From Methylocystis sp. (GTDB lineage Bacteria; Pseudomonadota; Alphaproteobacteria; Rhizobiales; Beijerinckiaceae), in NCBI GenBank assembly GCA_022843525.1, contig JALHNR010000015.1, positions 1-24,283 of the forward strand: 24,283 nucleotides of DNA, given 5' to 3'. Below the pieces are notes generated by a model, which had not been told where the DNA came from, searched no databases, and worked only from the letters and a program-made list of their open reading frames with translations. This document shows positions 1,620 through 23,972 of this stretch, one piece after another. The position numbers were made by a program, and so were the translations under genes. Every line of letters starts with the position of its first letter. Position 1 is the first letter of the stretch.

Positions 1620-1903
1620 AAAGCATCTTTGTTGCGAAACGGGGGAGACGCTCGCAATTCGATGGCGCCAGACTGCCCGAATCAGTCTTGTTCTCTTTAG
1701 CTATAACGGCGCTTCGAAATTCCACGGACTATCGTCCGTGCCGCGGGCGTCGTTTAGCAGCTTTCCCTGCCCGCAGCGGATCAGAGACTTAGTTGCGCCG
1801 CAAAAAATCCCAGCCGTTCATGAGGATGGCATTTCCCTCAAGTGTTGCTACATTTGGCTGCGGTACGCGTTTGTCCCGCACCCGCGTTAATTTCGCCTGA
1901 GCC

Positions 1904-2608: not shown

Positions 2609-2614
2609 TCAGTC

Positions 2615-2875: not shown

Positions 2876-2929
2876 GACCTCAGAATTCCGTCGCATCTAA
2901 GTCGTATCGGATCGAACTGGTTGGCGCGC

Positions 2930-2946
2930 GCGATCGAATCGATCGC
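2930..2946. promoter_or_regulatory. Perfect 8-1-8 palindrome GCGATCGA-A-TCGATCGC upstream of the multicopper oxidase gene
   Basis: Read directly from the sequence. It lies about 42 bp upstream of ATG 2988, in the 112-bp gap between the anti-sigma and MCO genes. The binding factor is unknown. Confidence 0.3.
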
Positions 2947-2987
2947 CGGCATTGTCCCCGGTTCTCCGCTCGAAGGAGTGTGATGCG

Positions 2988-3965: not shown

Positions 3966-3968
3966 TCA

Positions 3969-5834: not shown

Positions 5835-5851
5835 ACCATTGCAATTCAGCT

Positions 5852-5884
5852 CCGATGGATAGCCCCGAGCAGGGCTTCCATCGG
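5852..5884 (+). terminator. Long imperfect hairpin downstream of the cupredoxin-propeller gene
   Basis: CCGATGGA-T-AGCCC [CGAGCA] GGGCT-TCCATCGG starts 18 nt after the stop codon. It has a 13-bp stem with one bulge. No U-tract follows, so terminator function is uncertain. Confidence 0.35.
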
Positions 5885-5945
5885 GGTGATCAGTTGTTAC
5901 CGCAACAGACGCAGCACTCGCCGAATAATGTTAGGAGAAACGCGA

Positions 5946-6632
5946 ATGATCGAGCGTCAAGCCAACAAGACAGAACATCTGGTTTCGGCCCATGCAGATC
6001 GATTTCGTGACGGCCCGAGTCGTTTAATGGGTTTGGACAACAACTTTAGCGGAGTCCGAAGGTCGAAGCGTACCCAGGCTGAAGCTGAAGCGGCTGTGCG
6101 GGTTCTTATCGAATGGGCAGGCGACGATCCGAACCGCGAAGGTTTGATCGATACGCCTGAGCGGGTGGCGCGTTCTTATCGCGAATTGTTCGCTGGCTAC
6201 GCCGCCGATCCTCGCGAATATCTCAAGCGCACGTTCGAAGAAGTGGGCGGTTATGACGAGCTGGTCGTATTGAAGAACATCCGCGTCGTTACTTTTTGCG
6301 AACATCACATGCTGCCGGTGATCGGACGCGCGCATGTCGGTTACCTGCCGACAAACCGGGTCGTGGGAATCTCCAAACTGGCGCGGGTCGTGCACGGATT
6401 CGCGCGTCGATTACAGATTCAGGAGAAGCTAACCGCTGAGATCGCCGAAGCCATCCAGGAAATTCTCGAGCCGCAAGGAGTAGGAGTGGTCGTCGAGGCC
6501 GAACACAGTTGCATGACCTTGCGTGGCGTGAACACGCTCGGATCCACATTGACCACTAGCCGGTTACTCGGCGTAATCCGCGACGACGCCCGCTCACGAG
6601 AGGAATTCCTCGGCATGGTGCGCCGAGCCTAG
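5946..6632 (+). CDS. folE: GTP cyclohydrolase I (type 1, FolE)
   Basis: Family motifs are present: [54 protein letters not shown] and [16 protein letters not shown] 5946 follows AGGAG (5933-5937). The ORF track opens earlier, at 5886. Confidence 0.9.
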
Positions 6633-6745
6633 AATTTGGACCAGCGGCTGACGAAAGAAGCATTGGGAGCGGAACGCCATGGAAGATGGCATTCTCTAAG
6701 TTCTCCCGCTTGTAATTTTGCCTCGACCCGAGGGACCGGCTCTAG

Positions 6746-7018
6746 ATGGAGACCGTTGCACGAGCGTTGTCGCCGATAATAGCTCGAGCCTTGAATCTGG
6801 AAGACGGGGGGTTTCCAAATCTGGAGATCCGCAACGGTGAGCTCGTTGGAACGATAGTTGCTTGTGCGGTAGAAATGCGCGCTGACCTGATCGTTATGCA
6901 GACCGATGGTCGCGATAGCGCTTTGGACTCGATCATCGGGAGCACAACCGAGCGCGTCATACACGAAGCGCCTTGCTCCCTAGATGACGTGAACCGAGAG
7001 CGTCTGTTTGGAAGGTAG
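6746..7018 (+). CDS. Universal stress protein (UspA-family) C-terminal fragment, probably truncated
   Basis: The 90-aa ORF ends with the USP C-terminal signature ADLIVMQTDGRDSALDSIIGSTTERVIHEAPCS. An in-frame TAG sits immediately upstream of the ATG. The N-terminal half of a normal USP domain of about 140 aa is missing. Confidence 0.5.
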   Translation: METVARALSPIIARALNLEDGGFPNLEIRNGELVGTIVACAVEMRADLIVMQTDGRDSALDSIIGSTTERVIHEAPCSLDDVNRERLFGR

Positions 7019-7102
7019 CGGCGACTCGGGAACTTTCACAGGGTGCTTTGCTTTTTGATGCGCAGCGCCTGCCGGTTCGCTGCTGAGTTTCAGGAGGGCG
7101 TC

Positions 7103-9409: not shown

Positions 9410-9421
9410 TCCGCCACTTGC

Positions 9422-9820
9422 ATGGAAGCCTATTACTTCGAGATTCGCGCTGTCCACATCGCGGCGGCGCTCGCGAGCGGCGGCTTCTACCTTATGCGCG
9501 CGCTCGCTTTAAACTTGCTCGCCGCGTCATGGCCGCTGTCGATAGTCGCGCGGCTTGCCTCCTACTCGATCGATACCGTGCTCTTTACGGCTGCCCTCAT
9601 GCTGATGGCCGTCACGCGTCAATACCCGTTTGGTGACACTTGGCTGACCATGAAGGTCGTGGTCATGCTGCCGCTCTATATTTTCCTTGGTTACTGGGCG
9701 CTCCGAGCCAAGGCGTTCAAGTTGCGGTTGGCGGCGATGGCCGGCGCGATCGCGGCTTTTCTTTTGATTTATAGCATCGCACGCACGCACAGCCCGCGGG
9801 GCGTGTTTGCGCTTGGGTGA
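9422..9820 (+). CDS. SirB2-like small integral membrane protein
   Basis: 132 aa with four hydrophobic segments. SirB2-like features are IRAVHIAAALASGGFYLMR, SIDTVLF and PFGDTWLTMKVV. It starts 12 nt after the norB stop, so it is probably co-transcribed. Confidence 0.65.
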   Translation: MEAYYFEIRAVHIAAALASGGFYLMRALALNLLAASWPLSIVARLASYSIDTVLFTAALMLMAVTRQYPFGDTWLTMKVVVMLPLYIFLGYWALRAKAFKLRLAAMAGAIAAFLLIYSIARTHSPRGVFALG

Positions 9821-9861
9821 GAAACGTCGTCAGCTTGGTCGGCCTTGCCTCGAACCCGCCT

Positions 9862-11070
9862 TTACGTCGTTGGATGCAAGCGCTTCGTCGTCAACATCCC
9901 GAAATAGAGCAGCACGAAGAGCCCGTACGCCAAGCTCCACATGCCCCCGGCGGCGGCGATCGCAGCAAAGTAATACGCGCCCGTAAAAGGGGCGCCAATG
10001 CGCAGGATGGCCGCAAATGTTATGGCGATGTAGATCGCGGCCGTTCTCTGATCTGCGACGAGCGGGCGCCCGGTGTGGCCGCGCGTTGCACGAGTCATCA
10101 CCGCGAGCGTCATTGTTCCGATGGCGCCGACGGTGAGGGCATGCAGAGGCGCTGCAGAATCCGTGGCCCAGAATAGTTTGTTGCCGCCCATGAGCAGGAA
10201 GCCCAAGGGAACCCAGCCATATCCCAGATGCAGCACGAAGAGCATCGGTTCCGCCCGCGCGCTGACGCCGCGCCAGCGGATAAGACGTAGAAAGAGCGCC
10301 GCCCCGGCGATAATCAGGAGACCCGCCGTAGGCCCCGCGTCAGGGAACGCGGCCCAGGCGATGAGCGCCACAAGCGTCGCCGCCAGCGCGAAACGATCGA
10401 AAGCGCCGAAAGGCGCCGGCTCCACTTCAGCTGGCGAATTCTTCGCGAGCCAGTTGCGGGTGAAGCTCGGCGTGATGCGCCCCCCGATGATGGCGATGAG
10501 CATGACGAGGGTCGCGACGCCGACGCGGGCCCCGATGGCGCCCGTTGCGGCAAGGCCGATCGCTTCGAGATGCGTGAGCAAATTCCCGATAAAGAGAAGC
10601 GCAAGAGCGGCCACCATGGGCAAGTTGCGCCAGTTCCGCCCCGTGGCGATCTCGCGCGCGACAACGAAGATAAAGACCGCCGGGAAAGCGAGGTCGAGCG
10701 CCGCAGAGACGAGCGCAGGCGCACTATTTGAAGTCAGGACGGCGATGCGCCCCAGCAGCCAGAGAGCGACGAGGCCGGCGAGCGGCGCGCCTTGTAAGGG
10801 CAGTCGACCGGTCCAGTTTGGAATGGCCGTCAGCAAGAATCCCGCGACGACGGCGCCGCCAAAACCGAAGGCCATTTCATGCGCGTGCCAGAGAGAGGGC
10901 GCGAAGCGTGTCGGCAGTTCGGCCGCCGCCTCCAGATAGGCGATGGAGAGCGGCAGCCCGACAGCGGCCCAGAGCGCGGCAAAAAGGAAGAAGGGGCGGA
11001 AACCCGCTGAAAGAAAGATCGCCACAGGGTTTTGACTCGCCTGAGCGCGATATCGCGGAATTGGAGGCAT
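9862..11070 (-). CDS. nnrS: NnrS family haem/copper membrane protein (NO-stress associated)
   Basis: 402-aa polytopic membrane ORF. The N-terminus carries GFRPFFLFAALWA, WHAHEMAFGFGGAVVAGFLLTAIPNWTG and GRITPSFTRNW, typical of NnrS. It is convergent with the norB-sirB2 unit. Confidence 0.9.
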   Translation of the reverse strand: MPPIPRYRAQASQNPVAIFLSAGFRPFFLFAALWAAVGLPLSIAYLEAAAELPTRFAPSLWHAHEMAFGFGGAVVAGFLLTAIPNWTGRLPLQGAPLAGLVALWLLGRIAVLTSNSAPALVSAALDLAFPAVFIFVVAREIATGRNWRNLPMVAALALLFIGNLLTHLEAIGLAATGAIGARVGVATLVMLIAIIGGRITPSFTRNWLAKNSPAEVEPAPFGAFDRFALAATLVALIAWAAFPDAGPTAGLLIIAGAALFLRLIRWRGVSARAEPMLFVLHLGYGWVPLGFLLMGGNKLFWATDSAAPLHALTVGAIGTMTLAVMTRATRGHTGRPLVADQRTAAIYIAITFAAILRIGAPFTGAYYFAAIAAAGGMWSLAYGLFVLLYFGMLTTKRLHPTT

Positions 11071-11097
11071 CGTTGACTTCCCCTTTGGAATTGATGA
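10461..11097 (-). repeat. Left copy of a roughly 0.63-kb direct repeat (5' third of nnrS plus about 25 nt of leader)
   Basis: It aligns base-for-base by eye with 18704-19334, with roughly one mismatch per ten bases and one 3-nt indel (EAAAELP versus ETAELP). Confidence 0.85.
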
Positions 11098-11189
11098 TGG
11101 GCTGGCGCTCGGTCACTAACGCACACATCGAGCGCGCAGGTCGCGAGCCTCGCGTTAGAAGCCAGCGGAATGTCACGGAGGGGAGGGGA

Positions 11190-11490
11190 AGATCAATAGG
11201 CCTTCTCTTGCGACACCATTCCTTCTTCTACGCGGATTCCCCGCAGATTGCGAAGGCGTTGCGAGGAAAGCGTCGCGCGCCACCGGCGTGGGTTGCGCTC
11301 GGGGCGTTCCTCGCCCTTGTGACCGCGACGACATGGATATCGACGAGCTCTTCCGCGAACCGCCGCGGGCGGCTGAGCGATAGTGGCCGAATTCGGTAAC
11401 GCGATGGCCAAGCCGAACGCGCGTCACTGCCACTCGTGGTCAAATCGCGGCGCTCCCTGATCAGTGGTGCAGGATCCGTGCAACCTCATG
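11190..11490 (-). pseudogene. Nitrile hydratase accessory/activator-like gene, decayed
   Basis: The ATG (complement of 11488-11490) overlaps the alpha-subunit 3' end. It reads MRLHGSCTTDQGAPRFDHEWQ-TGA-RAFGLAIAL. This resembles the accessory-protein motif (P-x-F-D-E-P-W-Q-x-R-A-F-A-L) but carries an in-frame stop. Downstream similarity is scattered over three frames. Confidence 0.45.
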
Positions 11491-11976
11491 ATGGCGCTCC
11501 GGCCAGCGCGACAAGCATATCGACTCGGTCGTCACGAGCTCCATCAGCTGCGCCTCGGTAAAATCCTCTGTCGCTGCTGGCCTTTCAGGAATTACGAAAC
11601 ACCGCGCCGTCCCGCTGCTGTCCCACACCCTGATCTCCGTTTCCTCGGGCAGTGGACGCCAACCTCGGCGAGCACTTTCCGCGGCTCGCGGGCCGCGCGG
11701 GCGCGAAATACCGGATCGGCAATCCCAGCACCGGCCATGGGAAGCACGAGCAAAGCGAGCAGATGATCAGGTTGTGCACCTCGGGCGCGTTAGCGACGGC
11801 CCGCAGGTGCTCGCCCTCGGCGCCGGCCATTCCCTCGGGCAGGTCGAGTTTGGCAATTGCGGCCGGGGTGTCGGCCAGGAGCCGGGCCAAGAAGCCCGCG
11901 TCGGTCCACGCTCGCACGACGATCTTTCTTGCCGTTGAGCGGACGCGGTCCTGCGGATACTTGAATGGCCGCTCAT
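11461..11976 (-). pseudogene. Nitrile hydratase alpha-subunit-like gene with multiple frameshifts
   Basis: The metal-binding claw motif is IICSLCSCFPWPVLGLP (codons at 11744-11761), preceded by RKIVVRAWTDAGFLARLLADTPAAIAKL. The C-terminal sequence continues in two other frames (DPVFRARAAREPRKVLAEVGVH, then LPEETEIRVWDSSGTARCFVIPERPAATEDFTEAQLMELVTTES). The ATG overlaps the beta stop (ATGA) but is out of frame with the conserved part. Confidence 0.8.
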
Positions 11977-12673
11977 GCAGGTTCCTCCAAGTATATCTCG
12001 AACAGTTCGGCGTAAAGCGTCTGCGCGCCGGGTTCCGCGCGCGGACCCCACAATTCGGTCGGCGTGAACTCGACGATGTAGACGGGCATTGGATCGCCGA
12101 TGCCATCGCCAGTGTGCCAGAAGTAGACACAGTCGCCTTCGAGCACCTGCGCCACCGTGCCGCTCCGCCCCCGCAGATAGCCGGGCAGGCGAGTGTGCGC
12201 GCCAACTGGGACATTTGCGATCCGGACCCGCTGCCCGACGGCGAACTTCGAATGCGCGACGTCGCGCCGCGGGCTGTCGCCGTTACGTAGATATGCGATG
12301 ATCTGCTCGTCGATGGCTTCAGCCCGATCGGATCCCCTGGCCGAGCGCCGTCCGGCCTGGCCGCTTCGCCACGCAGTTAGCTTGTCCGCGAGGCTAATTC
12401 GTCCTCGCGCAGGTATCCTTGTCGACGAGGAATGGGGATGCCGCTGAGCCACTTCTCGTAGTAACGGAATTTGAAGTAGTCGAATGGATCCATCGCCTCG
12501 GCGCCAGCGCGCAGATCCGCCCATGTCCACATGTCGCGGAAGGCGGTCGGCACGTAGGCGATCGCGCAGGCCGGCACGGACGAGTCGAGATGGCCCGAGA
12601 GAGCCATCATCGCCACATAGATGCCGAATATCCGATTTCCCACTGCCTCGGCAGGCTGGTTCAGAAAAAAGGG
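11973..12673 (-). pseudogene. Nitrile hydratase beta-subunit-like gene, 5'-truncated and frameshifted
   Basis: The N-half lies in one frame (12377-12643: DPFDYFKFRYYEKWLSGI). The C-half lies in another (FAVGQRVRIANVPVGAHTRLPGYLRGRSGTVAQV...VYIVEFTPTELWGP...LYAELFEIYLEEPA). An in-frame stop at 12674-12676 removes the usual first roughly 25 residues. No start codon is available for an independent C-half. Confidence 0.75.
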
Positions 12674-12817
12674 TCAATTCGGATCTGGAGCGCTTTTCCG
12701 ACGTTGTCCAAAATAGGCTCAGAGTTGTGGAAGGCAAAGGCCGCAACACGCCGACGGTGGAATCGGAGGATCAGGGACGACGCGCGCGGAAGATGCGGAG
12801 CGGCGGCGAATGAGCGC

Positions 12818-13200
12818 ATGACGCCTAAAGAAGTTGTCGCGCTGGTTCTTCAAGGCGGCGGCGCGCTCGACGCCTATTAGGCGGGCCCGTTCGAGGCGCT
12901 CGCGGCGGGGGATATTGTCCGCAGTGGCTCGCCGGCATTTCGATCGGCGCGATCAACGCCGTGATCATTTGCCGCAATCATCCGGAAAAGCGCGTCGAGC
13001 GCCTGCGCGCCCTTTGGGAACGCGTGATAAGCAGGACGCCCCTTCCCTTCAATCTGGACGGATTCCTCGGTCCCATTTTTGCCAACGCCAGCGCAAATCC
13101 CCTAGCGACGGTTGGCGCGCCCGGTTTTTAGGCTGCGTCTACCGCCTCCGGCCCTCTTATGGCCCTATTCAGCGCCCGGCTATCCCACCTCATATCTTCC
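12818..13200 (+). pseudogene. Patatin-like phospholipase gene remnant
   Basis: It reads MTPKEVVALVLQGGGALDAY-TAG-AGPFEALAAG. It then continues in another frame as PQWLAGISIGAINAVIICRNHPEKRVERLRALWERV (G-x-S-x-G nucleophile elbow) and in a third frame as PVFRLRLPPP. It ends after about 130 codons against the convergent sigma gene. Confidence 0.75.
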
Positions 13201-13261
13201 CTTCCGAATAGTTCCATCAAGCAGACTTATGCGGCTGAGGTACGGGGCTCTCGACCCGCCG

Positions 13262-13987
13262 CTACTCTTCGCTGGCCAGCCCTTCCGCTTTACAGCGTTC
13301 GAGGACACCGGTCACGATGCGGTCGCACCGCGCGCCGGCGAAGGCGAAAACGTCGCTTAAGCCCGCGTCCATCTCCTGGGCAAGGCTTTCGCGCAACAGG
13401 CTGCTAGCTCGGAAGAAGCGCGTACGCACCGTCGCCTCGGGGATCTCCAGCGCCTCGGCGGTTTCTTCGACGCTCATCTCCTCGATCGCGCGCAGCATGA
13501 ACACCGTCCGGAAGGCCTCCGGCAGAAGGTCGATGCGCGCCTCCAAGAGCTTGCGCATCTGAACCCGCATCATCGATTGTTCTGGGCTACGCTCAGGCTC
13601 ATCGTTCAGCGCTGTCTGGGCTTCAGATTCATGGGGCGTCATGGCAGCTTCCAAAGGAATGATCTGGGCACTCTTTCGCCACAAGCGGCCGAGCGCTTCA
13701 TGGGTCGTGATCCGCACAAGCCAGGTATAGAGCTTGCTCTCGGCGCGATAGTTTCCAAGCGCGCGCCACGCCCGCAGATAGGTGTCCTGGACGACATCCT
13801 CCGCCTCCGCATCATTGTGCACGATGCTACGCGCCGTACGGAACAGAAGCTGGTTGTGCCGTCGCATGATGGCTTCGAACGCCACTCCGTCACCGTCAGC
13901 GGCGCGCGAGATCAGCTCTGCCTCCGGCGTGGTTTTCGATAAGCTATTTGCCGCCTGACGCTGAAGTGATTGCATTTGCGCCTCCAT
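13262..13987 (-). CDS. ECF-type sigma-70 family sigma factor with a short Cys-containing C-terminal extension
   Basis: Region 2 is AEDVVQDTYLRAWRALGNYRAESKLYTWLVRITTHEAL. Region 4 is LPEAFRTVFMLRAIEEMSVEETAEALEIPEATVRTRFFRA. A roughly 35-aa tail follows (DVFAFAGARCDRIVTGVLERCKAEG). ATG 13975, behind GGAGG, is an alternative start. Confidence 0.85.
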   Translation of the reverse strand: MEAQMQSLQRQAANSLSKTTPEAELISRAADGDGVAFEAIMRRHNQLLFRTARSIVHNDAEAEDVVQDTYLRAWRALGNYRAESKLYTWLVRITTHEALGRLWRKSAQIIPLEAAMTPHESEAQTALNDEPERSPEQSMMRVQMRKLLEARIDLLPEAFRTVFMLRAIEEMSVEETAEALEIPEATVRTRFFRASSLLRESLAQEMDAGLSDVFAFAGARCDRIVTGVLERCKAEGLASEE

Positions 13988-14195
13988 TCATTGAACAGGT
14001 AGGCTACCGGCGTGCCTTTGCCGGCGCTGCCGCTATAGGGATCGCGCGCGCCGCGTCTTCCGGATCGCGCAGCAATTCCATCATGCCCGCGACCATCGCG
14101 AAAGCGATCAACGCGTCGATGAGTATCACGGCTCCTTTCCGGGCGTACGGGCGATGGCGGGGCGCCGTTCCGTCGTCGCCCTTGGCGTTGTCCGA

Positions 14196-14609
14196 CTAAT
14201 GTTCGAACTTCGTTGGGAAGGCGGCGATCAAACCGTTGGTCAGGGCATCGGCCAGCATCATCATATGAGCCTCCGCCTTTCCATATTCGGCGATGCCGTT
14301 GGCATATTTGCCCTGCAAAAGCCCCGTGGCGTAGACCACAGTTGTGTCGATATGCCCCTTGAGCCTGTCGCGTACCTTGGTTTGCGGCCAGTTCTCGTTC
14401 GCCTTGGCGAGAAAATCGGCAATTTCCTGCGCGTTTGCGTAGGCGGCTGCGACGGACTTGTCGGTGGCCGGCTTGTCGCCGGCCTTGGCGGCTTTCACGA
14501 CCTCGACGGCTGCGCCGATATGCTCCTGAAGCAGCTTGGTGAGCGCGTTACCAGCTGCATCGCCATAGAAGGGCTTGATAGCGTCGCCGATATCGGGCTG
14601 GTTCTGCAT
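14196..14609 (-). CDS. Hypothetical all-alpha protein (conserved-looking, function unknown)
   Basis: 137-aa ORF ([43 protein letters not shown]...) with helical-repeat character. Its ATG shares one base with the stop of the upstream signal-peptide ORF. Confidence 0.6.
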
Positions 14610-14740
14610 CAGTCGCGCTGCATGTTAACGGAATAGGCGGCGGTCGGGCGGAAAACGGGAGTAGCCATAAGTGCGGCGGCGAAGCCCGCAAGGGCGAGGC
14701 GGCGATTAACGGCCGGGTGGAACATCTGCACGCGTGTCAT
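14609..14740 (-). CDS. 43-codon ORF encoding only a signal-peptide-like sequence (probably the detached 5' end of the 14196-14609 gene)
   Basis: The ATG (complement of 14738-14740) lies 6 nt after AAGGAGA. The peptide is [43 protein letters not shown]. Its stop overlaps the next ATG (TGATG). Confidence 0.35.
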
Positions 14741-14803
14741 GACGGTTCTCCTTGGTCGATCAGTTTGCGTAGCGGCCGGTGTGATCGACTCGATGCGGCC
14801 CCG

Positions 14804-14856
14804 TACATTCGATGCGACCCTTTCGCGCTGCGTTCCCGTTGCACGAGATTTTTTTG
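14804..14856 (-). promoter_or_regulatory. ECF (RpoE/AlgU-type) promoter-like element, copy A
   Basis: The minus strand reads TGCAACGGGAACGC-N17-TCGAATGTA. GGAAC is the complement of 14832-14836 and TCGAA the complement of 14808-14812. This puts the -10 about 65 nt upstream of ATG 14740. A second copy lies 277 bp away. Confidence 0.5.
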
Positions 14857-14952
14857 GGGGAAAAGAGAAAGCTTCCGAGCAGGTCGAGCGGCAGAGTACG
14901 GTCAACTCTAAAACATCCTGCGACAACACAAGCGCTGGATCGTAAACGGGCT

Positions 14953-14983
14953 GCGGAGGCGCTAAAACTCATAGCGCCTCCGC
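14953..14983 (-). terminator. Perfect 11-bp-stem hairpin between the two promoter-like copies
   Basis: GCGGAGGCGCT [9-nt loop] AGCGCCTCCGC, read directly. On the minus strand it is followed by AGCCCGTTTACG, which is only a weak U-run. Confidence 0.35.
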
Positions 14984-15080
14984 TATCGCACCAGCGTGAA
15001 TTTACGGGGGTTCCCGACGGTACGATATTTCTGTACAGAGCGGTAGCTGCCGCTCAGTTTTTCTCCGCACTCGCGCCCTG

Positions 15081-15131
15081 TATATTAGATGCGACCATTC
15101 CGCGCTGCGTTCCCGATGCAGGAATATTTTT
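15081..15131 (-). promoter_or_regulatory. ECF (RpoE/AlgU-type) promoter-like element, copy B
   Basis: The minus strand reads TGCATCGGGAACGC-N17-TCTAATATA. GGAAC is the complement of 15109-15113 and TCTAA the complement of 15085-15089. It matches copy A at roughly four of five positions over about 52 nt. Confidence 0.45.
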
Positions 15132-15231
15132 GGCTTTAGGCGTGTGGCCGGGTTTGTTCGCTTGGGCGCGAGCATCGAGGCGTTGCTCGAAGCTCTGGCG
15201 TCGAAGCGCTGCCAATGCTGCGAGCGGCGGA

Positions 15232-15759
15232 CTACGGATAGATAACGGCGCCGTCAGGTTGAATGACCGCGCCTGGAGTGAGATGGGCCGGCTCCAGACG
15301 ACCTTCCCCCAAAATGTGGAAAACGGTCTCCCCGCTGGCGATAAGATAATCGGCGACGATGCGGCGGTGGCATCGCCACCATACGGCTTCCGAACACATG
15401 ATGGTACAGCGCCGCTTGCGTCCTCTGTCCAAGAGGTGTTGGAGGCCTGCCTGAAACTGTGTAGTAAGCGCATAATCGGCGTAGTTGTGGAAACTCTCGT
15501 TCGTCCAGAAGGCGTTGACAGTCGGAGATATGCCGCGTGACCTTCCACGAAGGCCACCGAGGGCAGCCATATGTTCATAAGAGATGGCGACGGCCGCCAA
15601 GGCGCCGGGAAGCGTGTTCTTGTCAAACTGTGGATTGGTTCGTGACTTCGGAATCGTTCTGATGTCCGCGACAAGAGCGATATCGGCTTCGCGCAGCAGA
15701 CCGATGAAAGCCTCGAGGGTTCGGTTGGAATGGCCGATGGTGAAAAACGGAAGCTTCAC
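15232..15759 (-). CDS. DUF488 family protein
   Basis: 175 aa with the DUF488 pattern FTIGHSNRTLEAFIGLL, VADIRTIPKSRTNPQF and IMCSEAVWWRCHRRIVADYL. Confidence 0.8.
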   Translation of the reverse strand: MKLPFFTIGHSNRTLEAFIGLLREADIALVADIRTIPKSRTNPQFDKNTLPGALAAVAISYEHMAALGGLRGRSRGISPTVNAFWTNESFHNYADYALTTQFQAGLQHLLDRGRKRRCTIMCSEAVWWRCHRRIVADYLIASGETVFHILGEGRLEPAHLTPGAVIQPDGAVIYP

Positions 15760-15771
15760 GCGCGGCCTTCG

Positions 15772-15981
15772 TTATGCATAGTCGAGCGCGCCGCCCTTAT
15801 GCGCTGCGATGTGATCTGTCTTGTCGCTTTTGATTTCGTACTGGGGATCGTCTTTCGACGCGTGATGCGTGTGGCCTTTATAATCGAAATCTCTAATGTG
15901 AATGGCGATGATAGTCCCCGACACGCGTCCGGCCTCGGAGTTCCAGCTCACATGATCGCCGATCTTAAACTTCCGTGCCAT
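15772..15981 (-). CDS. DUF2945 (HVA/Tudor-like) small protein
   Basis: 69 aa: KFKIGDHVSWNSEAGRVSGTII ... DDPQYEIKSDKTDHIAAHKGGAL matches the DUF2945 pattern. It lies 12 nt upstream of DUF488 on the same strand. Confidence 0.75.
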   Translation of the reverse strand: MARKFKIGDHVSWNSEAGRVSGTIIAIHIRDFDYKGHTHHASKDDPQYEIKSDKTDHIAAHKGGALDYA

Positions 15982-16064
15982 CGCTGCGTCCTCCCGGTTC
16001 CAAGAAGCGCTTCTCCCAAACAGATGGATCCGAAGTCTACGCCCGGCGCCAGCACCACGGAAGC

Positions 16065-16770
16065 CTAGGTCGTCGGCAGCCGGAAGGTGAAGGTCTCCAG
16101 AAAATTCAGTTCGACGGCCGTGCTGGAATAGCTCGTGTAACCAACGGATATGTCCCGACCGATATCTAACTCGAAGTCACCGCTGCAGGTCGTGCGCACG
16201 ACGCTGCCTTCAATGGCGGGCGCCAGATGATCCCTCCGTCCACCATACGCTCAAGATGGTGAAAAACCGGATAGCCCTGGACGCTTCCGCCACTCGCGGC
16301 GGTGTAGGTGTCTAGCCCGAGCACGAGCGCGTACGGACCGTGTCGCCGGCGAGCCGCAACTGGCTGACCCGCCTGAGCGAGGCGCTTGGGTAACCCGGAC
16401 GTTGGAAGGCAGCACAACGCCCTGATTGCTGCTGGCCTCGCGAATGGTGAATGCCTGCCGCAGCGTACCCATCGGACACAGCGCGATCCTTTGCAAAGGG
16501 GATTTCCCGGGCACCCAATCTGAATCCATTGCGCCGCGCTCCACGTCGTCGATCGCTTGCCGCGTCAGACCGTCTGGAATACGATCCAGAACGACTTGCC
16601 GACCCTGAAACAGCAGATGACGACGGGGACGAAGATGACTGCTGAATGGGACAGGTTCACGCTACGGAAATTGCCATGCTGAGGCTGATCCTGATAGCAA
16701 ACAGCCACGTTACCATTTTGCCAAGCCTTTGTATCAACCCGCCAATTCTGAATCCAACAATGGGCACGCA
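16065..16770 (-). pseudogene. Family-1 encapsulin shell protein gene, heavily frameshifted
   Basis: Encapsulin-like segments are spread over all three minus frames. They are PQHGNFRSVNLS; LTRQAIDDVERGAMDSDWVPGK; EIPFAKDRAVSDGYAAAGIH; REASSNQGVVLP; HGPYALVLGLDTYTAASGGSVQGYPVFHHLERMVDGGIIWRPP; and SGDFELDIGRDISVGYTSYSSTAVELNFLETFTFRLPTT followed by a stop. Confidence 0.7.
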
Positions 16771-17054
16771 ATTAGCCGATGAAGACGGCAAAGATGCAGC
16801 TTGCGTGATCGGTGAGCAATTTTCTGTCTTTCACCAAGGATGGCGTCCCGTCTGATGTTCTTCCTGCTACTTTCACCATTGACAGGCTTAGGTCCGACTC
16901 AGTTATCCTTGTCACGGCGATCGAGTTCGCGCTCAACCGCCTGCGGCTGATGACCCCTGCTCTACATTGTGTCGGAGTCCGTCGTTGCTCTAGTCGACAA
17001 CCGCGGATGATGTCGCGTAATACCGCCCAGTAGCGATTATAGAACGGAGCGAGG

Positions 17055-18647
17055 GTGGCGATCATGGATAGGCCGGCCCGAATGATAGGCTGGCGATTCC
17101 TGCTGCTGAATGGCGCGGCGGGGGCGGCGAATGTCGTCATGCTCTCGAACGTTCCGGGCTACACGGTGCTCGCGCCCTATGCCGCCGGCAGTCTGCAGGG
17201 CGTGACGCCGAGCTTCGGCACCTGGGCGACCACCGACCACATGGTGGGAATCGCGCTCGGCCTGCCACTGTCGCGGTGGTTCTCCGGGCGCTTCGGCGAC
17301 TATCGCGTGCTGATCGGCGCGCTCGTTGTCTACGCCATCTTCTCGCTGATGTGCGCGGCGAGCGAAACCATCTGGTTTTTCGCGCCGATGCGCTTTCTCC
17401 TCGGACTTGCCGGCGGCGTCGCCCTTCCGCTCGCCCAATCCGTGACGCTTGCGCAATATCCGGATCACCAGCGCACGCTCGGCGTCGGCTTCTGGGGCGT
17501 CATGAGCATGGCGCCCTTCACCATCGGCGTATTCATGGGCGGCTTCTGGGCCGAATATTTCGACTGGCGCTGGCTATTTTATTCCAACGTCTTGGTCGTG
17601 ATGCCCGTCGCGGCGATCATCGCCGCGCTGTTCTACCGGCGCGGCTTTCAGCGCCGCATGACGCGCTTCGATACGATCGGCTTCATTCTGCTCGCCGCGG
17701 TGCTGCTCGGCGTGCAGACGATTCTCAACATGGGCAATGATTTCGACTGGTTCGCGGAGCCTCTCCTCGGATGGCTGCTGCTCGTCGTGCTGCTGGCGCT
17801 GCCGATGTTCATCTTTTGGGAGTTCGGCGAACGACGGCCCGCGCTAGACCTGCGTCTGTTTCTGCATCGCAACTTCGCCATCGCGACTTTCTGCTCGATC
17901 GTCGGCTTCCTGGTGATTCAGGGCCTGCTCTCGGTGTTCATCGTGCAATTGCAGGTGCTGCTCGGCTACACGTCCTCGCTCGCCGGCATGGTCTATCTGA
18001 TCATGATTTTTCTGGCGATGGCGGCCGCGGCCGTCGTGCATGAAATCACGAGGAACGTCGACGCGCGACTGATCGTGTTCCTCAACTTCATCGGTCTCGC
18101 AGTGACCTTTGTCTGGCTCGGACAATACGACAAGAACGCCTATTTCGATGACGTCAAGACGCCGATGTTCTTTTTCGGCTTCTCGCTCGCGATGTTTTTT
18201 GCGCCGCTCGCTACCCTCGCCATGACCGGGCTCGTCGGCGAACGACTGATCCGCGCGGCGGAAGAGCTCGCGATGCTGCGCACCGTGGCCGGCGCCCTGG
18301 GCATCTCGCTGCTCGGCGTTCTCTTCTTCCGCCGAACGCCGTTCCATCAGCTCGATCTCGCCGATCATTTCGGCGGACGGCGCTTCGCCTCGCTCGACCT
18401 GCTCGCCACTTTCCTGGATCGCATGCAGGCGATGGGCATGTCGCCCACCGCCGCGCAGAGCCGCGCGGCGCAGCTCATTCGACAGCAGGCGTCGATCCTC
18501 GCGCTCAACGACGTCTTTCTGTTCGGCGCAATGGCGTTCATCCTGCTCTCGGGAGTCGTCTGGCTCGCCTATCCAAGCTACGCGTCCAAGAAGCGCAAAC
18601 AATCGCTAACACGGCTTTCCGCCGAGGAACTGATGGAGCAGCCCTGA
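17055..18647 (+). CDS. MFS transporter, DHA2 (EmrB/QacA-like, 14-TMS) family
   Basis: 530-aa ORF with about 14 hydrophobic segments. MFS motif-like loops are LSRWFSGRFGDYRVL and LGLAGGVALPLAQS. The central and C-terminal extra helices are typical of DHA2. No membrane-fusion (EmrA) partner is adjacent. Confidence 0.8.
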   Translation: MAIMDRPARMIGWRFLLLNGAAGAANVVMLSNVPGYTVLAPYAAGSLQGVTPSFGTWATTDHMVGIALGLPLSRWFSGRFGDYRVLIGALVVYAIFSLMCAASETIWFFAPMRFLLGLAGGVALPLAQSVTLAQYPDHQRTLGVGFWGVMSMAPFTIGVFMGGFWAEYFDWRWLFYSNVLVVMPVAAIIAALFYRRGFQRRMTRFDTIGFILLAAVLLGVQTILNMGNDFDWFAEPLLGWLLLVVLLALPMFIFWEFGERRPALDLRLFLHRNFAIATFCSIVGFLVIQGLLSVFIVQLQVLLGYTSSLAGMVYLIMIFLAMAAAAVVHEITRNVDARLIVFLNFIGLAVTFVWLGQYDKNAYFDDVKTPMFFFGFSLAMFFAPLATLAMTGLVGERLIRAAEELAMLRTVAGALGISLLGVLFFRRTPFHQLDLADHFGGRRFASLDLLATFLDRMQAMGMSPTAAQSRAAQLIRQQASILALNDVFLFGAMAFILLSGVVWLAYPSYASKKRKQSLTRLSAEELMEQP

Positions 18648-18689
18648 GAGACCGTTTGAGAATGGTTGCGACGGAGATAGGGGCGTGAT

Positions 18690-19310
18690 TCAAGCTCGGG
18701 ATTTGAAGCTCGGCGTGATGCGGCCCCCGATGACGGCGATGAGCATGACGAGGGTCGCGACGCCGACGCGGGCCCCCAAGGTGCCCATAGCGTCAAGGCC
18801 CATCGCTTCGAGATGCGTGAGCAAATTCCCGATGAAGAGAAGCGCGAGAGCGGCAACCATGGGTAAGTTGCGCCAGTTCCGCCCCGTGGCGATCTCGCGC
18901 GCGACAACGAAGATAAAGACAGTCGGGAAAGCGAGATCGAGCGCCGCGGAGAAAAGCGCAGGCGTGCTATTCGAAGTCAGGACGGCGATGCGCCCAAGCA
19001 GCCAGAGAGCGACGAGTCCGGTGAGGGGCGCGCCTTGTAAGGACAGCCGACCAGTCCAGTTTGGAATAGCCGTCAGCAAAAAGCCCGCGACGACCGCGCC
19101 GCCAAAACCGAAGGCCATTTCATGCGCGTGCCAGAGAGAGGGCGGGAAGCGTGTCGGCAGTTCGGCCGTCTCCAGATAGGCGATGGAGAGCGGCAGCCCC
19201 ACGGCGGCCCAGAGTGCGGCAAAGAGAAAGAACGGACGGAATCCCGCTGAAAGAAAGATCGCCAGAGGGTTTTGACTCGCCTGAGCGCGACATCGCTGAA
19301 TCGGAGGCAT
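18690..19310 (-). pseudogene. nnrS: Truncated second copy of nnrS (first roughly 200 codons only)
   Basis: From ATG (complement of 19308-19310) it reads MPPIQRCRAQASQNPLAIFLSAGFRPFFLFAALWAA...GGRITPSF, then diverges (KSRA-stop). By my count there are about 16 substitutions and one codon indel versus the full copy over about 200 aa. The 268-aa track ORF is a spurious 5' extension. Confidence 0.85.
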
Positions 19311-19334
19311 CGCTGACTTCCCCGGAATGAACGC
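18704..19334 (-). repeat. Right copy of the roughly 0.63-kb nnrS 5' direct repeat
   Basis: It pairs with 10461-11097 in the same orientation. At the inner junction, AAGCTCGG occurs twice, at 18692-18699 and 18706-18713, straddling the point where similarity begins. Confidence 0.85.
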
Positions 19335-20445: not shown

Positions 20446-21220
20446 AACGCTGTCACGGCTGTCGGCTGGCGTCCCTCGCTGGCATCTGCCGAATTGGGCC
20501 GGTTAGATGAACGAACGGGGTGACAAAAACTGTCGATGTTGCGGAGCCGCTCAAGGCGATTAGGCGCCATAACCTGGCGCAACAACTTTCGTCTGAATTT
20601 CCAAACGGCGGCGAATGGCGCCGCCGGCTCATGTTTCTCGCTTCTTCCGTTCCTTTCGTGCGCCTCTTCTGATTGCGTCATCGCCGGCGCAAGCCGAGTG
20701 CTCGTCTGTTCAGATCTTGACCGGGATCGCCGCTGTTTTTGCACTCCGCATCGTTGAGCCGCTTCGTTTATCGGTCACCTTCGTACGCCGCGGAATTGCG
20801 GGCGTCGTTGTTCCCCAAAGTCGTTTTGCCTGGCGCAGTGCCTATTCTTTGCCGGTTGGACCCGTGATTGTGGACTGCCGTGAGATCGAAGCGAGCCCCT
20901 CGTCAAGGTTCACGAGGTCTGATTTCCCGACGATCGGAATTCGCAGCGACTTTCCCATCGCTCTCCGTTGCGCCCGCCCGCCTCCGTTGCATGGCGTTTG
21001 GTCCTATGGCCGCAGTCGCCACCCAAAACCCTGCGGCCGCAACGATTTTCCCCTTGGCGCTCAAGCGCCAATTCCTCGCGCAACAAAATCGCCGCGGCCT
21101 TAGGGTCCTCCGCTTCTCACTTCGGCCTCGCGCTTTCCGGCGCTTCGGTTATGGCGTCGCCTTTTGCGGCCATCACGGACAGCCATCGCAACCGGGGCAA
21201 ACGCCCCAACGATGGAGAGC

Positions 21221-21593
21221 ATGATGAAGACTTTCGCGGAATTCCAAATCCTCGGCCGCATCAACAAGGCAGACGACACGCGTTTCGATCTGCGCCAACT
21301 ACGCATTCAAGGACCGCAACGGCGAGACGAAGGACAAGCCCTATTGGAACGAGATTACGATCTGGAGCGAGAGCGCGCGCAAATACGTCTGTGACTATGC
21401 GAAGCCCGGCGATCTCGTTGTAGCGCGCGGCACGCTGAAGCAGGGAAGCTTCGAGACGGACGGCGAGAAGGTCTATACTGTCGACCTCAACTGCGACGAC
21501 TTCTCGATCCTCGCCTCCGCTAAGATGGACAAGTCCGACGAGGAAACCGAGGCGGCGCCCGAGATGACGAAGAAGACCGCAAGACGCAAGTGA
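21221..21593 (+). pseudogene. ssb: Plasmid/ICE-type single-stranded DNA-binding (OB-fold) protein gene with a frameshift
   Basis: Frame A reads MMKTFAEFQILGRINKADDTRF. After about 21290 the sense continues in frame +1 as ANYAFKDRNGETKDKPYWNEITIWSESARKYVCDYAKPGDLVVARGTLKQGSFETDGEKVYTVDLNCDDFSIL, with an acidic/basic tail and TGA at 21591-21593. Confidence 0.6.
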
Positions 21594-21598
21594 ATCGA

Positions 21599-21626
21599 AC
21601 GAGGGGCGGCGAACGCCGCCCCTCGT
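21599..21626 (+). terminator. GC-rich 12-bp hairpin just after the ssb-like stop
   Basis: ACGAGGGGCGGC [GAAC] GCCGCCCCTCGT, read directly. It starts 6 nt after the stop, and no U-tract follows. Confidence 0.4.
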
Positions 21627-21646
21627 CCAGCTCGTATATCTTGCAT

Positions 21647-21983
21647 AGGGCGGTCCGAGTTTGTCCCGGACAAACGTTTTAGACTAGGCCTTGCCTTTAG
21701 AGCTCCCCAGAGCACGACAAGACTTTTCAGCAGTTTGCCCAAGGCAAACTTTTCGCCGCTCGCCGCGCAGGGGCGGGCCGAGTTTGTCCAGGACAACCTT
21801 TTTCGGCGACGCCAAATGTTGATCTCAGATTTTTCCAAGCGGTGAGATTGAGTTTCCCTGGGGCAAACATTCCCGCTTGGTTGCTGGAGTTTGTCCGGGA
21901 CAAACTTTTTTGGCGCCGGGCCTTGCCTTCAGAGCCCCCGAAAAGGCGACAAAGCTCGTGAGTCCAGCTTGCCCGGGGTAAGG
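21647..21983. repeat. Array of 5-6 palindromic repeats, consensus (G)AGTTTGYCC-n1-3-GGRCAAAC(TTTT): candidate centromere (parS), operator or iteron cluster
   Basis: Copies lie at 21657-21675, 21731-21749, 21780-21797, 21850-21868 and 21887-21905, with a degenerate copy at 21965-21983. Copies 1 and 5 share about 65 bp of extended flank (..GGCCTTGCCTTYAGAGCYCCC..CGACAA). Copies 1 and 3 share the left flank AGGGCGGKCCG. The array sits between the ssb-like gene and parA. Confidence 0.7.
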
Positions 21984-22168
21984 ACTTCGACGCCCTGGCG
22001 GGCGCAAATGACCGCTTGCCTCTCTTACCCCCGTGAAATTTTGCAGTGGTTCTCATTCGGCGCGCCGGGGCAAAAACTCCGGCGTCGAATCGATTCGAAT
22101 CGACAGAGCCAGAGGAGACAGACTATGACGGCCGCCAATCGAGATTGTCGTGACGACCGAGCAGCCTC

Positions 22169-22917
22169 ATGAAGGCGCTCGTCGTGAACAATGAGAAGGG
22201 CGGCGTCGGCAAGAGCACGATCGCCGTGCATCTCGCCTGGTATTTTGCAGAGCGCGGTAAACGCGTTCTTTTCCTCGACCTCGATCCACAGAGCAATGGC
22301 ACAACGACGCTTGCGGCGCATGCTGTTGGGATCGACGCCGCTGCCCTCTTTGCGCGCCCGGTCGCCGTTCCATCGATGGCGAGCGCTGGCATTCGGGTCC
22401 TGGGCGGCAGCGCCGCCTTGCGCGGCATCGTCGCCGTAGACGGCAAGCTAATCGAACAATTCCGCTCCAATATTAAAGACGCGTCGCGCGCCTATGACAT
22501 TGCGGTCATCGACACGCCGCCAACCTTCGGCGTGCGCAATCTCGCGGCGTTGATCGCAGGTCAGTTCGTGCTGGCGTCGATCGACCTCGACGACTACGCC
22601 TCGAGGGCATTGAAACGCTGCTCAAGCACATCCTCGGCGTGAAGCAGAAATACAATTCCGGCCTCGAGATCCTCGGACTGATCCCCAATTGGCTGCAGAC
22701 AACCTCGCCGCACCAGCGGGAGAATTTGAAGAGCCTCGTCCAGAGGTTCGGCACGAAATACCTGTTCGACGGCGTGATCCCGCAACGCTCGTAGATCGGC
22801 GAGGCGTTGGCGGAGAAAAAGCCGGTCTGGAACTTACCGAAGACAGCGGCGCGCGAGGCCGGCCGCGAGATGCGCATCGTATTCGACAAGCTCGCGACGA
22901 AAATGGAGATGGCATGA
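22169..22917 (+). pseudogene. parA: ParA/Soj-type partition ATPase gene with one frameshift and one in-frame TAG
   Basis: The deviant Walker A is NEKGGVGKST, with VLFLDLDPQSN and IAVIDTPP. The reading frame changes near 22590-22602 (DLDDYA / LEGIETLLKHILGVKQKY...GLIPNW). TAG at 22792-22794 interrupts IPQRS-*-IGEALAEKKPVW. The final TGA (22915-22917) overlaps the parB ATG. Confidence 0.85.
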
Positions 22918-23972
22918 GCTACGCTCGCAAACTCGATGATGTCGCGTTGCTGCTGGACGAACTCGAGGGCCTCGAATCGTCTGCCTCGAGCGGCAAGCCT
23001 CTCGAAATCCCGCTTTCGTCAATCGAGGAAGACCCAGATCAGCCGCGGCGCGCTTTCGACGCCGAGACGCTGGAGGAGCTCGCGGCCTCAATCCGGGAAC
23101 GCGGCGTCCTTCAACCGATCGGCCTCACTCCAGTGGGTCTCAATGGAATGCACCGAACCGTCTTCGGGGCGCGGCGCTTTCGGGCGGCGCAACTCGCTGG
23201 CCGCGCGACGATCGCGGCGTTCATTCATTCGGGAGAGGCCAGCGACCCTTACGACCAGATGATCGAGAATATCCAGTGGGACGACGTTTGGGCCGCGGAT
23301 ATCGCCGCATTCATTGCTTCCCGCCTTGCGGCGGGCGAGAAGCAGAAGGACATCGCGCTGCGGCTCGGCAAGGACAAGAGCTATATCGCCATGTATGCGG
23401 CTGTCGCGCAAATGGCGCCCGTGCTGCGAGAGCGGTTAACGACCTCGCCGATCCGCGCCGTCTATGAATTGCATCAGATGTGGAGAAAGTTTCCGCGGGC
23501 CGTCGAGGCGTTTTGCGCGCAACATGACTCGTTCACCCGCGTACAAGTGGTCGCATTTTGCGAAGGTCTGAGCGGTCGGCCGCCGCGGACTGATGATTCG
23601 CCGCTGAGTGACGAACTGCATGACGCAGCCAATCCACATGACGACGGGGCCTTGCCGGGCGCGGATCGAAAGTTGAATTGCGCTCCGCAGGGACGGAAGC
23701 GTCGAACTCGGTCGGCTAGATCCATCCGGATGCGCTCGCGACGAAGCGCGGCGCCATTCGACACGACCAGAGCGACGGGCGTCCGAAGTGGCGCTGGCGA
23801 CGTTACGTGTCGAGCATGGGCAGCGTTACGGGCGGCTGTTGTTGGAGTGCGGATCGAGCAAGAGCGAGGCGCACGGTCTGGTCTTCTCTTCGAAGACGAC
23901 GGCACGGTCGAGGATGCGCCTCTCGCTGCGTTGCGGCTCGTGTCGCTGAAGATAGGCCTAGCGAATTCGTGA
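22914..23972 (+). CDS. parB: ParB/KorB-like partition and DNA-binding protein (C-terminal third possibly frame-disrupted)
   Basis: ATG 22914 overlaps the parA stop (ATGA). The ParB N-domain is LEIPLSSIEEDPDQPRRAFDAETLEELAASIRERGVLQPIGL and VFGARRFRAAQLAG. The HTH is EKQKDIALRLGKDKSYIAMYAAV. After about 23690 the in-frame sequence becomes Arg-rich. A KorB-like tail (LRVEHGQRYGRLLLE..., LFEDDGTVEDAPLAALRLVSL) is split between two frames. Confidence 0.75.
   Translation: MSYARKLDDVALLLDELEGLESSASSGKPLEIPLSSIEEDPDQPRRAFDAETLEELAASIRERGVLQPIGLTPVGLNGMHRTVFGARRFRAAQLAGRATIAAFIHSGEASDPYDQMIENIQWDDVWAADIAAFIASRLAAGEKQKDIALRLGKDKSYIAMYAAVAQMAPVLRERLTTSPIRAVYELHQMWRKFPRAVEAFCAQHDSFTRVQVVAFCEGLSGRPPRTDDSPLSDELHDAANPHDDGALPGADRKLNCAPQGRKRRTRSARSIRMRSRRSAAPFDTTRATGVRSGAGDVTCRAWAALRAAVVGVRIEQERGARSGLLFEDDGTVEDAPLAALRLVSLKIGLANS

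Follow-up and report, generated by a model that had tools for sequence, protein, structure and literature searches.

The spacer between ssb and parA in the Methylocystis DNA analysed here, a stretch of 24,283 nucleotides that we refer to as the window, carries an array of short palindromes that are probably the cognate DNA sites, the counterpart of parS or OB, of the KorB-type ParB encoded 1 kb downstream. A sequence-only reading had proposed that the array acts in cis as the site set of the parAB genes beside it, and comparison with related loci lends this proposal strong support through position, exclusivity, conservation and the match between site class and ParB clade. By analogy with characterised systems, the best reading of their role is the loading of a CTP-dependent ParB clamp, whereby the sites would act as a centromere, as a parAB operator at a distance, or as both. 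The array is most likely an ordinary plasmid maintenance or control element with a new sequence, and not a new kind of system.

A palindrome array within a damaged parAB module

A pattern scan for the 17-nt palindrome GTTTGYC-NNN-GRCAAAC returned five copies, starting at 21659, 21733, 21782, 21852 and 21889 (span 21659-21905), three of which are perfect and two of which carry one mismatch. A flanking A and T stretch most copies to 19 nt, and a run of four to six T residues lies 3' of four of the five. From start to start the copies are 74, 49, 70 and 37 bp apart, an irregular series without helical phasing. Copies, spacings and T-runs are as the sequence-only reading had described them, by pattern scan and repeat search alike. 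Dinucleotide shuffles of the window gave a mean of 0.23 matches, with 0 of 100 reaching five, and no further copy of the 17-mer with up to two mismatches was found in the rest of the 24.3-kb window. A pattern with a 2-bp centre (GTTTGYCCNNGGRCAAAC) was tried and rejected, yielding one spurious match only; the true centre of the palindrome is 3 bp. The elements are as follows.

21658..21676, no strand assigned: palindrome copy 1, core GTTTGTCCCGGACAAAC at 21659-21675, then GTTTT; exact match
21732..21750, no strand assigned: palindrome copy 2, AGTTTGCCCAAGGCAAACT, then TTT; exact match and a perfect 19-nt palindrome
21781..21799, no strand assigned: palindrome copy 3, GTTTGTCCAGGACAACC, one mismatch, then TTTTT
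21851..21869, no strand assigned: palindrome copy 4, GTTTCCCTGGGGCAAAC, one mismatch, without a T-run
21888..21906, no strand assigned: palindrome copy 5, AGTTTGTCCGGGACAAACT, then TTTTT; exact match
21967..21983, no strand assigned: doubtful sixth copy, GCTTGCCCGGGGTAAGG, at a spacing of 78

The last of these had been put forward as one degenerate copy. Its spacing of 78 bp is as noted, while its standing as a copy is doubtful: 4 of the 14 specified positions are mismatched by manual count, column conservation is 0.48, and the segment is common to the window and its closest relative, the Methylocystis MAG contig L013, only, being equally degenerate in the latter. It is probably a non-functional site. 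The five remaining copies have the form known for ParB and KorB sites, which are short palindromes of 13-19 bp that occur singly or as repeats.

Units larger than the palindrome are also repeated. A 43-nt family (D1) links copies 1, 3 and 5, and a 34-nt direct-repeat family (D5) contributes two repeat-unit tails.

21687..21720, + strand: repeat-unit tail 3' of copy 1, direct-repeat family D5, 34 nt
21919..21952, + strand: repeat-unit tail 3' of copy 5, D5 twin of 21687-21720, 79% identical

The longer repeat unit that had been noticed around copies 1 and 5, and the relatedness of copies 1 and 3, correspond to these 43-nt and 34-nt families; the minus-strand peptide strings LSWTNS, LSGTNS and LSRTNS are indeed present and are a trivial consequence of the repeats. 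Copy 1 is kept in the window and in the related loci L014 and L111, and is missing from L013 through a 124-bp deletion; the same block, absent from L013 and retained in L014 and L111, contains copy 2. Since units larger than the palindrome are repeated (D5) and the 124-bp block has been lost in L013, copy number changes by unequal recombination, and the array has grown or shrunk through the duplication and unequal recombination of such units.

The first 19.3 kb of the window carry genes for nitric-oxide reductase, NnrS, a multicopper oxidase and an ECF sigma factor, and are 96.6% identical to a Methylocystis rosea plasmid, with the similarity ending at 19323. From 20546 on, the window is collinear with L013 at 87-92% identity, and its ssb-parA-parB segment is ~82% identical to that of the M. 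parvus OBBP plasmid pMpar-2. Downstream of this segment, pMpar-2 and an M. rosea plasmid carry mobC, relaxase and VirB-type secretion genes, and in both of these complete relatives a distant repABC cassette gives replication and primary partition. The synteny ssb-parA-korB-mobC-relaxase is common to pTer331 (PromA) and to plasmids of Methylocystis, Methylobacterium, Bradyrhizobium and Agrobacterium; to judge from this comparison, the gene order fits PromA/IncU-type plasmid backbones.

Repeated elements of 17-19 bp in non-coding DNA beside ssb might suggest iterons of a replication origin or copy-control element, an option raised by the sequence-only reading. We find it very unlikely, as the units are palindromic and not directional direct repeats, their spacings are irregular, a rep gene is missing from the neighbourhood (in both complete relatives repABC is distant from the module), and copy number (2-5) and spacing vary freely among close relatives.

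The array lies between ssb and parA, and parA is broken, both as previously stated. The three genes that surround it are the following.

21224..21593, + strand: ssb pseudogene 5' of the array; its tblastn match to pMpar-2 Ssb is broken over two frames
22169..22917, + strand: parA pseudogene for a ParA/MinD-type Walker ATPase, ~249 aa if intact; Pfam AAA_31/CbiA/ParA
22914..23972, + strand: KorB-type parB, reading frame open but damaged; Pfam ParB_N and KorB

The product of the gene at 22914-23972 combines the ParB_N CTPase fold (PF02195, 69.2 bits; cut-off 26.3) with the KorB DNA-binding domain (PF08535, 59.7 bits; cut-off 22.3), the combination that marks a KorB-type ParB. Its best PDB match is RK2 KorB 8qa8 (E = 4e-26), with 1r71 for the DNA-binding domain. 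This ParB had been regarded as apparently intact, which proved incorrect. A pair of frameshifts, -2 (~23691) and +2 (~23885), shifts ~69 codons of the C-terminal domain into the wrong frame, a segment that is 85.5% identical to L013 when read in its true frame. Furthermore, the ENIQR motif reads ENIQW in the window, the Arg being invariant across six relatives. Intact CTP-binding motifs and an intact C-terminal dimerisation domain are therefore lacking in the window's ParB, both being intact in the six relatives; relatives with an intact ParB retain the GxRR and ENIQR motifs. The ssb gene has a window-specific 14-bp deletion at about 21267, and parA, compared with pMpar-2 and L013, has a 1-bp deletion at ~22600 and an in-frame stop at ~22792. 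In L013, ssb, parA and parB are all intact.

Lineage-specific substitutions number 76 in the window and 81 in L013, with similar spectra, and no excess of C-to-T decay was seen in the window lineage. Because substitutions are no commoner in the window than in L013, either inactivation was recent or the indels are possibly assembly errors. With frameshifts or a stop in each of ssb, parA and parB, the array is probably an orphaned relic, unless a related ParB acts in trans or the lesions are assembly errors. The damage to the window's ParB counts against the cognate-site reading for the window itself.

Position, exclusivity and conservation in related loci

Related loci, 80 in number, were retrieved from species-representative genomes by ParB alignment. 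All 16 Methylocystis-type loci possess 2-5 palindromes, located 140-540 bp upstream of parA, and the palindromes occupy the same spacer in every Methylocystis relative examined, whether genome, plasmid or metagenome, with 2-4 copies in each. In the complete pMpar-2 (205 kb), whose intact ParB is WP_016921245.1, the exact 17-mer is found at 166800 and 166879 and nowhere outside the ssb-parA spacer; the M. rosea plasmid, complete at 195 kb, has four sites of a 15-mer class, described below, all of them likewise in the ssb-parA spacer. Shuffles of either plasmid gave about zero matches. No site outside the spacer was found in the window, in the two complete plasmids (400 kb) or in the 10-kb flanks of all loci. 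The array is consequently placed as ParB sites would be, next to the parAB genes and confined to the par region. This confinement on the two complete plasmids excludes there both a dispersed REP-like element and dispersed operators in the style of RK2. A dispersed REP-like element had been named at the outset as a case that would speak against a partition site set; none was seen in the window, the two complete plasmids or the locus flanks. No comparable array was seen in the more distant pTer331 and Methylobacterium DM1.

The isolate Methylocystis sp. B8 possesses two modules of the same class, with ParBs that are 88% identical.

Scanning metagenomes for the extended motif gave 20 loci. Eight of them are multi-copy arrays, each beside an ssb homologue and, where the contig was long enough, parA and parB. 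A further 11 are single copies of unrelated GC content and without par genes, and look like chance matches. One locus, L098, was rejected as a related array: it has ~24 tandem 17-mers with a 20-bp period, within an element bounded by inverted repeats and without par genes. The L098 contig also carries fragments of a eukaryotic NPR2 gene and is probably eukaryotic.

Within the clade of the window, copies 3 and 5 have orthologues in six of six aligned loci. In copy 3 the site has a column conservation of 0.88 and the T-run one of 0.83; in copy 5 the values are 0.89 and 0.87, respectively, as against 0.62 for the whole spacer, which outside these two copies is full of indels and scarcely alignable between loci. 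We count this excess of conservation over the spacer as selection on the sites. Copy 4 is the weakest of the five, with an aligned motif in L013 and L014 only and a column conservation of 0.61.

These observations bear on the idea that the repeats might be selfish or neutral DNA of REP or MITE type, or plain duplications without function. It is true that the array changes through duplication and deletion of units, and that the same 17-mer occurs ~24 times in tandem in the unrelated element of L098. Nevertheless, the motif is not dispersed in the window, in 400 kb of two plasmids or in the 10-kb locus flanks; two copies are orthologous and conserved amid spacers that can scarcely be aligned; and the 11 single-copy metagenome matches, with their unrelated GC content and absence of par genes, resemble chance. 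We accordingly assign this idea a very small probability.

Site classes follow ParB clades

The palindromes of related modules fall into classes that differ in half-site and centre. The clade of the window has the 7+3+7 17-mer, and a sister Methylocystis clade has a 7+1+7 15-mer, GTTTGTC-N-GRCAAAC. Methylobacterium and Methylorubrum have a 16-mer (GTTTGCCCGGGCAAAC), Rhizobium and Agrobacterium have GTTTGCT-CA-AGCAAAC, Bradyrhizobium has TGTTGGTT-CA-AACCAACA, and Bosea has TGTGGTT-TG-AACCACA. The more distant clades usually have one site 80-140 bp upstream of parA and another between parB and mobC.

When a neighbour-joining tree was built from the N-terminal and DNA-binding regions of ParB, site class tracked ParB clade without exception (7/7, 9/9, 4/4 and 3/3 loci), and did so for the Bradyrhizobium and Bosea groups too. 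The recognition helix of the helix-turn-helix varies by clade (LGKDKSYIAMYA, LAKSKGFVAMHA and LGKPRDWVSRYA; IGKSPAFITQHV in RK2), as does the residue aligned with KorB Arg240, which we take from the 1R71 structure to be a DNA contact and whose numbering agrees with the chain alignment. Site sequence thus co-varies with the DNA-binding domain of ParB; sites and genes are physically linked, so this covariation could partly reflect co-inheritance. In other clades, copies ~2 kb apart that flank parAB bear an identical clade-specific palindrome, and such concerted change within a clade suggests that the module itself encodes a binder acting in trans. The locus L104, which has 17-mer sites beside a 15-mer-type parB, was considered as a counter-example to covariation and set aside as a mosaic locus: a transposase-like insertion lies directly 3' of its third palindrome, and parA is missing.

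Covariation of sites with ParB could come from linkage alone if the palindromes were operators of another regulator, either a host factor or a KorA/TrbA-like plasmid repressor, and ParB were not their binder. There are precedents, in that KorA controls the promoter of the korA-incC-korB operon in RK2 and RA3, and RK2 OA (GTTTAGCTAAAC) has the same outer GTTT...AAAC as the 17-mer. Yet no korA-like or other DNA-binding reading frame is conserved upstream of ssb or between ssb and parA. A regulator gene hidden in the spacer or upstream of ssb was rejected, since the reading frames there do not stay in register when the window is compared with L013, and the spacer alignment is rich in indels of lengths not divisible by three. 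With a host factor, the existence of three site classes in one genus, each tied to one ParB clade, would go unexplained. A regulator whose gene lies at another place on the plasmid should have further targets, of which the two complete plasmids show none. Operators of another regulator are, on balance, unlikely. No other DNA-binding gene was found conserved in the module, which leaves ParB without a competing binder.

The 15-mer and 17-mer classes often have an identical half-site, GTTTGTC, and differ in the length of the centre. This half-site is separated by 1 bp in the 15-mer clade, 2 bp in the Methylobacterium clade and 3 bp in the clade of the window. It is possible, and we advance this only tentatively, that half-site spacing and not base identity sets the specificity between ParB and site, as a natural case of specificity evolving through geometry. 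The one-sided conserved T-tract of the 3-bp clade might then offset the altered geometry through DNA bending.

Proposed role and relation to known systems

In the mechanism that we propose, a ParB dimer would recognise each GTTTGYC-NNN-GRCAAAC through the helix-turn-helix of its KorB domain, as homology and covariation suggest. CTP bound at ParB_N would close the dimer into a clamp, which would leave the site and slide along flanking DNA, as extrapolated from RK2 KorB, a CTP clamp that loads at OB, slides, and silences promoters up to 1.5 kb away (PMC11790492). Loaded ParB would subsequently act as partition complex for the neighbouring Walker-type ParA, or serve as parAB autorepressor, or both; RA3 KorB, which binds parS plus operator sites, is both a partition protein and a transcriptional regulator (PMC7414963). 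Several irregularly spaced copies would simply provide more loading, and their number could shift by unequal recombination among the repeat units.

Which of these roles applies can be considered in light of other features of the spacer.

21599..21626, + strand: GC-rich hairpin 3' of ssb, a likely terminator stem without a T-run; 13-bp perfect inverted repeat
22014..22020, no strand assigned: half-site-like remnant GCTTGCC, where sister clades have a complete palindrome
22027..22047, + strand: conserved box ACCCCCGTGAAATTTTGCAGT, about 20 bp, conserved over three ParB clades
22125..22172, + strand: 15-codon upstream reading frame whose stop overlaps the parA start (ATGA); AGGAG lies 7 nt 5' of the ATG

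The box at 22027-22047, for which column conservation in the clade is 0.87 when taken over 22027-22056, is a putative parA promoter core or second operator. In the 15-mer and 16-mer clades a promoter-proximal palindrome stands at the alignment columns of the remnant, 0-8 bp upstream of the box, and GCTTGCC at 22014-22020 may be a decayed half-site. A scan of 21500-22250 found no consensus sigma-70 promoter. Within the clade, 45-125 bp separate the nearest full site from the likely promoter region downstream, and repression would be exerted at a distance. Indeed, since the sites of the window clade are upstream of the box and not on it, and no consensus promoter was detected, an operator role rests on action at a distance. 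In RK2 such action needs the partner KorA, and a korA-like gene is absent from the window module. Conversely, the presence of repABC on the host plasmids and of two same-class modules in B8 argue against an exclusive centromere role. The upstream reading frame has a nucleotide conservation of 0.87 in the clade, its peptide not being kept in pMpar-2 owing to an indel, and its overlap with parA suggests translational coupling. No credible Rfam match was found in the region, the top hit being sX6 at 14 bits against a threshold of 40 bits.

The T-run of the 17-mer clade lies on the parA side only, with a mean of 4.5 T in the six bases after the site (34 sites), and 15-mer sites have a symmetric extension in its place. 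A one-sided conserved T-run does not fit a symmetric dimer site alone, and the cognate-site reading leaves it unexplained. It may instead invite a view of palindrome and T-run as weak intrinsic terminators that shield parAB from read-through from ssb: the T-run is conserved (column conservation 0.83-0.87) and lies on the parA side without exception, and stems of 8-10 bp followed by U-runs are predicted for copies 2 and 5. The hairpins are, however, weak and non-significant (z from +1.1 to -1.4), whereas the hairpin after ssb folds at -27.7 kcal/mol with z = -5.5. Copies 1 and 4 do not fold into this hairpin, a terminator scan found none, and sister clades keep palindromes without a T-run, either symmetrically extended or also 3' of parB. 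The arms, moreover, are conserved base by base, with compensatory changes absent. As the primary function of the array, termination is distinctly improbable, although the array may have a secondary terminator role in the 17-mer clade.

Cognate sites of a KorB-type ParB, our preferred reading, have several counterparts among known plasmids. RK2 (IncP-1) KorB shares the ParB_N plus KorB-domain architecture of the window's ParB and is likewise a ParB paired with a short ParA; identity over the aligned region is ~30-35%, as estimated from the alignment, and the CTP-binding residues R117 and N146 of RK2 KorB have conserved equivalents here. Both OB and the window sites are palindromes with T-rich and A-rich outer arms, and RK2 OB, TTTAGC-G-GCTAAA, has the same 6+1+6 geometry as the sister-clade core, TTTGTC-N-GACAAA. 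In contrast, the window clade differs from OB in its half-site and has a centre of 3 bp instead of 1. The earlier statement that the array matches no known parS or OB consensus hence needs qualifying: the module is of KorB type and the sister 15-mer shares the geometry of OB, whereas the sequence itself and its 3-bp centre are new. Arrangement differs too, the 12 OB of RK2 being dispersed around the plasmid and acting with KorA and TrbA, where here there is a cluster in one spacer and no korA.

RA3 (IncU), with its korA-incC-korB-orf11-parS operon, similarly has a KorB-type ParB and a ParA directly upstream of a mobC-relaxase operon (mobC-nic). Its parS is downstream of the operon, like the extra sites in Bradyrhizobium, Bosea and Methylobacterium, whereas the Methylocystis sites lie only upstream of parA; three more OB operators lie elsewhere in RA3, whose operon is autoregulated by KorA. 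PromA plasmids (pTer331, pIPO2 type) have the same order of ssb, a small reading frame, parA/incC, korB, mobC and relaxase, and the ParBs share 44% identity over residues 28-219. In PromA a 125-aa reading frame stands between ssb and parA, in the place of the array, and no GTTTG...CAAAC palindromes were found upstream of pTer331 parA.

Clustered short ParB-binding palindromes beside a par operon are familiar from sopC of F, a centromere that aids autoregulation. In sopC, 43-bp units are repeated regularly in tandem downstream of sopB, and the window array differs in lying upstream, in its irregular spacing of 37-74 bp and in its 2-5 copies. The half-site of chromosomal parS (TGTTTCACGTGAAACA) is GTTTCAC, to be compared with GTTTGYC here; both start with GTTT, and chromosomal parS, unlike the 17-mer, has no central spacer. 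The host plasmids have a separate repABC cassette with partition proteins of its own, and the window motif is distinct from both chromosomal and repABC parS.

Comparison alone has in this way identified the sequence that is probably recognised by a clade of KorB-like ParBs not studied before. On large repABC plasmids of methanotrophs and other Hyphomicrobiales, these ParBs are carried along with the conjugation module. The clade-specific sites catalogued here, with centres of 1, 2 and 3 bp, could serve to annotate centromeres or operators on such plasmids, and could predict incompatibility or cross-regulation among plasmids that reside together. Should the spacing reading hold true, these clades would furthermore provide a ready test of how much half-site rotation is tolerated by CTP-dependent ParB clamp loading.

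Elements flanking ssb and parA

The spacer that carries the array of 17-bp palindromes, the putative binding sites of the KorB-type ParB, continues towards parA with three further elements in the window:
22027-22047: conserved box, ACCCCCGTGAAATTTTGCAGT, kept across three ParB clades
22085-22103: second palindrome, unlike those of the array, TCGAATCGATTCGAATCGA, about 80 bp upstream of parA
22125-22172: upstream open reading frame of 15 codons, ending in ATGA and overlapping the parA start codon

The short reading frame is preceded by a good Shine-Dalgarno sequence (AGGAG, 22113-22117), and no obvious ribosome-binding site was found for parA itself in the window. Within the clade, the short frame is conserved in its nucleotides but not in its encoded peptide, and the arrangement as a whole suggests translational coupling to parA. 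The second palindrome is partially conserved in the closest relative, a Methylocystis metagenome-assembled contig (L013), and in the related locus L015; it is not conserved in pMpar-2, the 205-kb plasmid of M. parvus OBBP. Its position equals that of a ParB-type site in the Bradyrhizobium clade. The conserved box could form the core of a promoter or serve as another site of protein binding; in the sister clade with 15-mer sites it takes the form CTGTGAAATCTCACAG, in itself a near-palindrome. Furthermore, a region of about 300 bp lying 5' of ssb (20920-21224) is conserved in every locus of the clade, across which no open reading frame is kept in frame. This region could serve ssb as promoter or leader, or act as a signal of the leading region.

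Repeats and palindromes in other loci

An exact match to the array motif was encountered at 3700-4370 of L098, a metagenome contig carrying fragments of a eukaryotic NPR2 gene, where approximately 24 copies of GTTTGCCCSGGGCAAAC plus TTT are arranged in tandem with a 20-bp period, enclosed by an element with inverted repeats of about 25 bp at its ends. Despite the match, this array is unrelated to par genes and we rejected it as a par-linked site set.

Bradyrhizobium-type loci (for example L010, L036 and L041) possess a highly conserved palindrome, GCGATGTATTACATCGC, at about +1380 from the parB start and just 5' of mobC, which is probably an oriT or a MobC site. Immediately 3' of parB in these loci lies CCATCCGAAGGATGG, probably a terminator.

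Lesions, junctions and mosaic modules

The parB gene of the window (22914-23972) contains a -2 indel (about 23691) and a +2 indel (about 23885). Only because these offset each other does the reading frame remain open, with the 69 codons between them out of frame; this parB would pass as intact in ORF-based annotation.

Upstream of the module, the window begins with the following:
1-19323: denitrification-type gene island with norB, two nnrS genes, a multicopper oxidase, GTP cyclohydrolase I, ECF sigma factors and an MFS transporter

This stretch shares 96.6% identity with CP044330 and CP034088, both plasmids of M. rosea. The likeness stops sharply at 19323, and the ssb-par module therefore lies at a recombination junction.

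Such modules recombine at the array itself, as shown by a mosaic in the related locus L104 (7280-8320). Here, a transposase-like insertion sits immediately after ssb and three 17-mer sites, the parA gene has been lost, and a parB of the 15-mer type is joined on. Modules can also reside together: the isolate Methylocystis sp. B8 harbors two (contigs 10 and 12), both of the 15-mer site class, with ParB proteins that are 88% identical. Should the two lie on separate replicons, it is unlikely that these modules determine incompatibility strongly.
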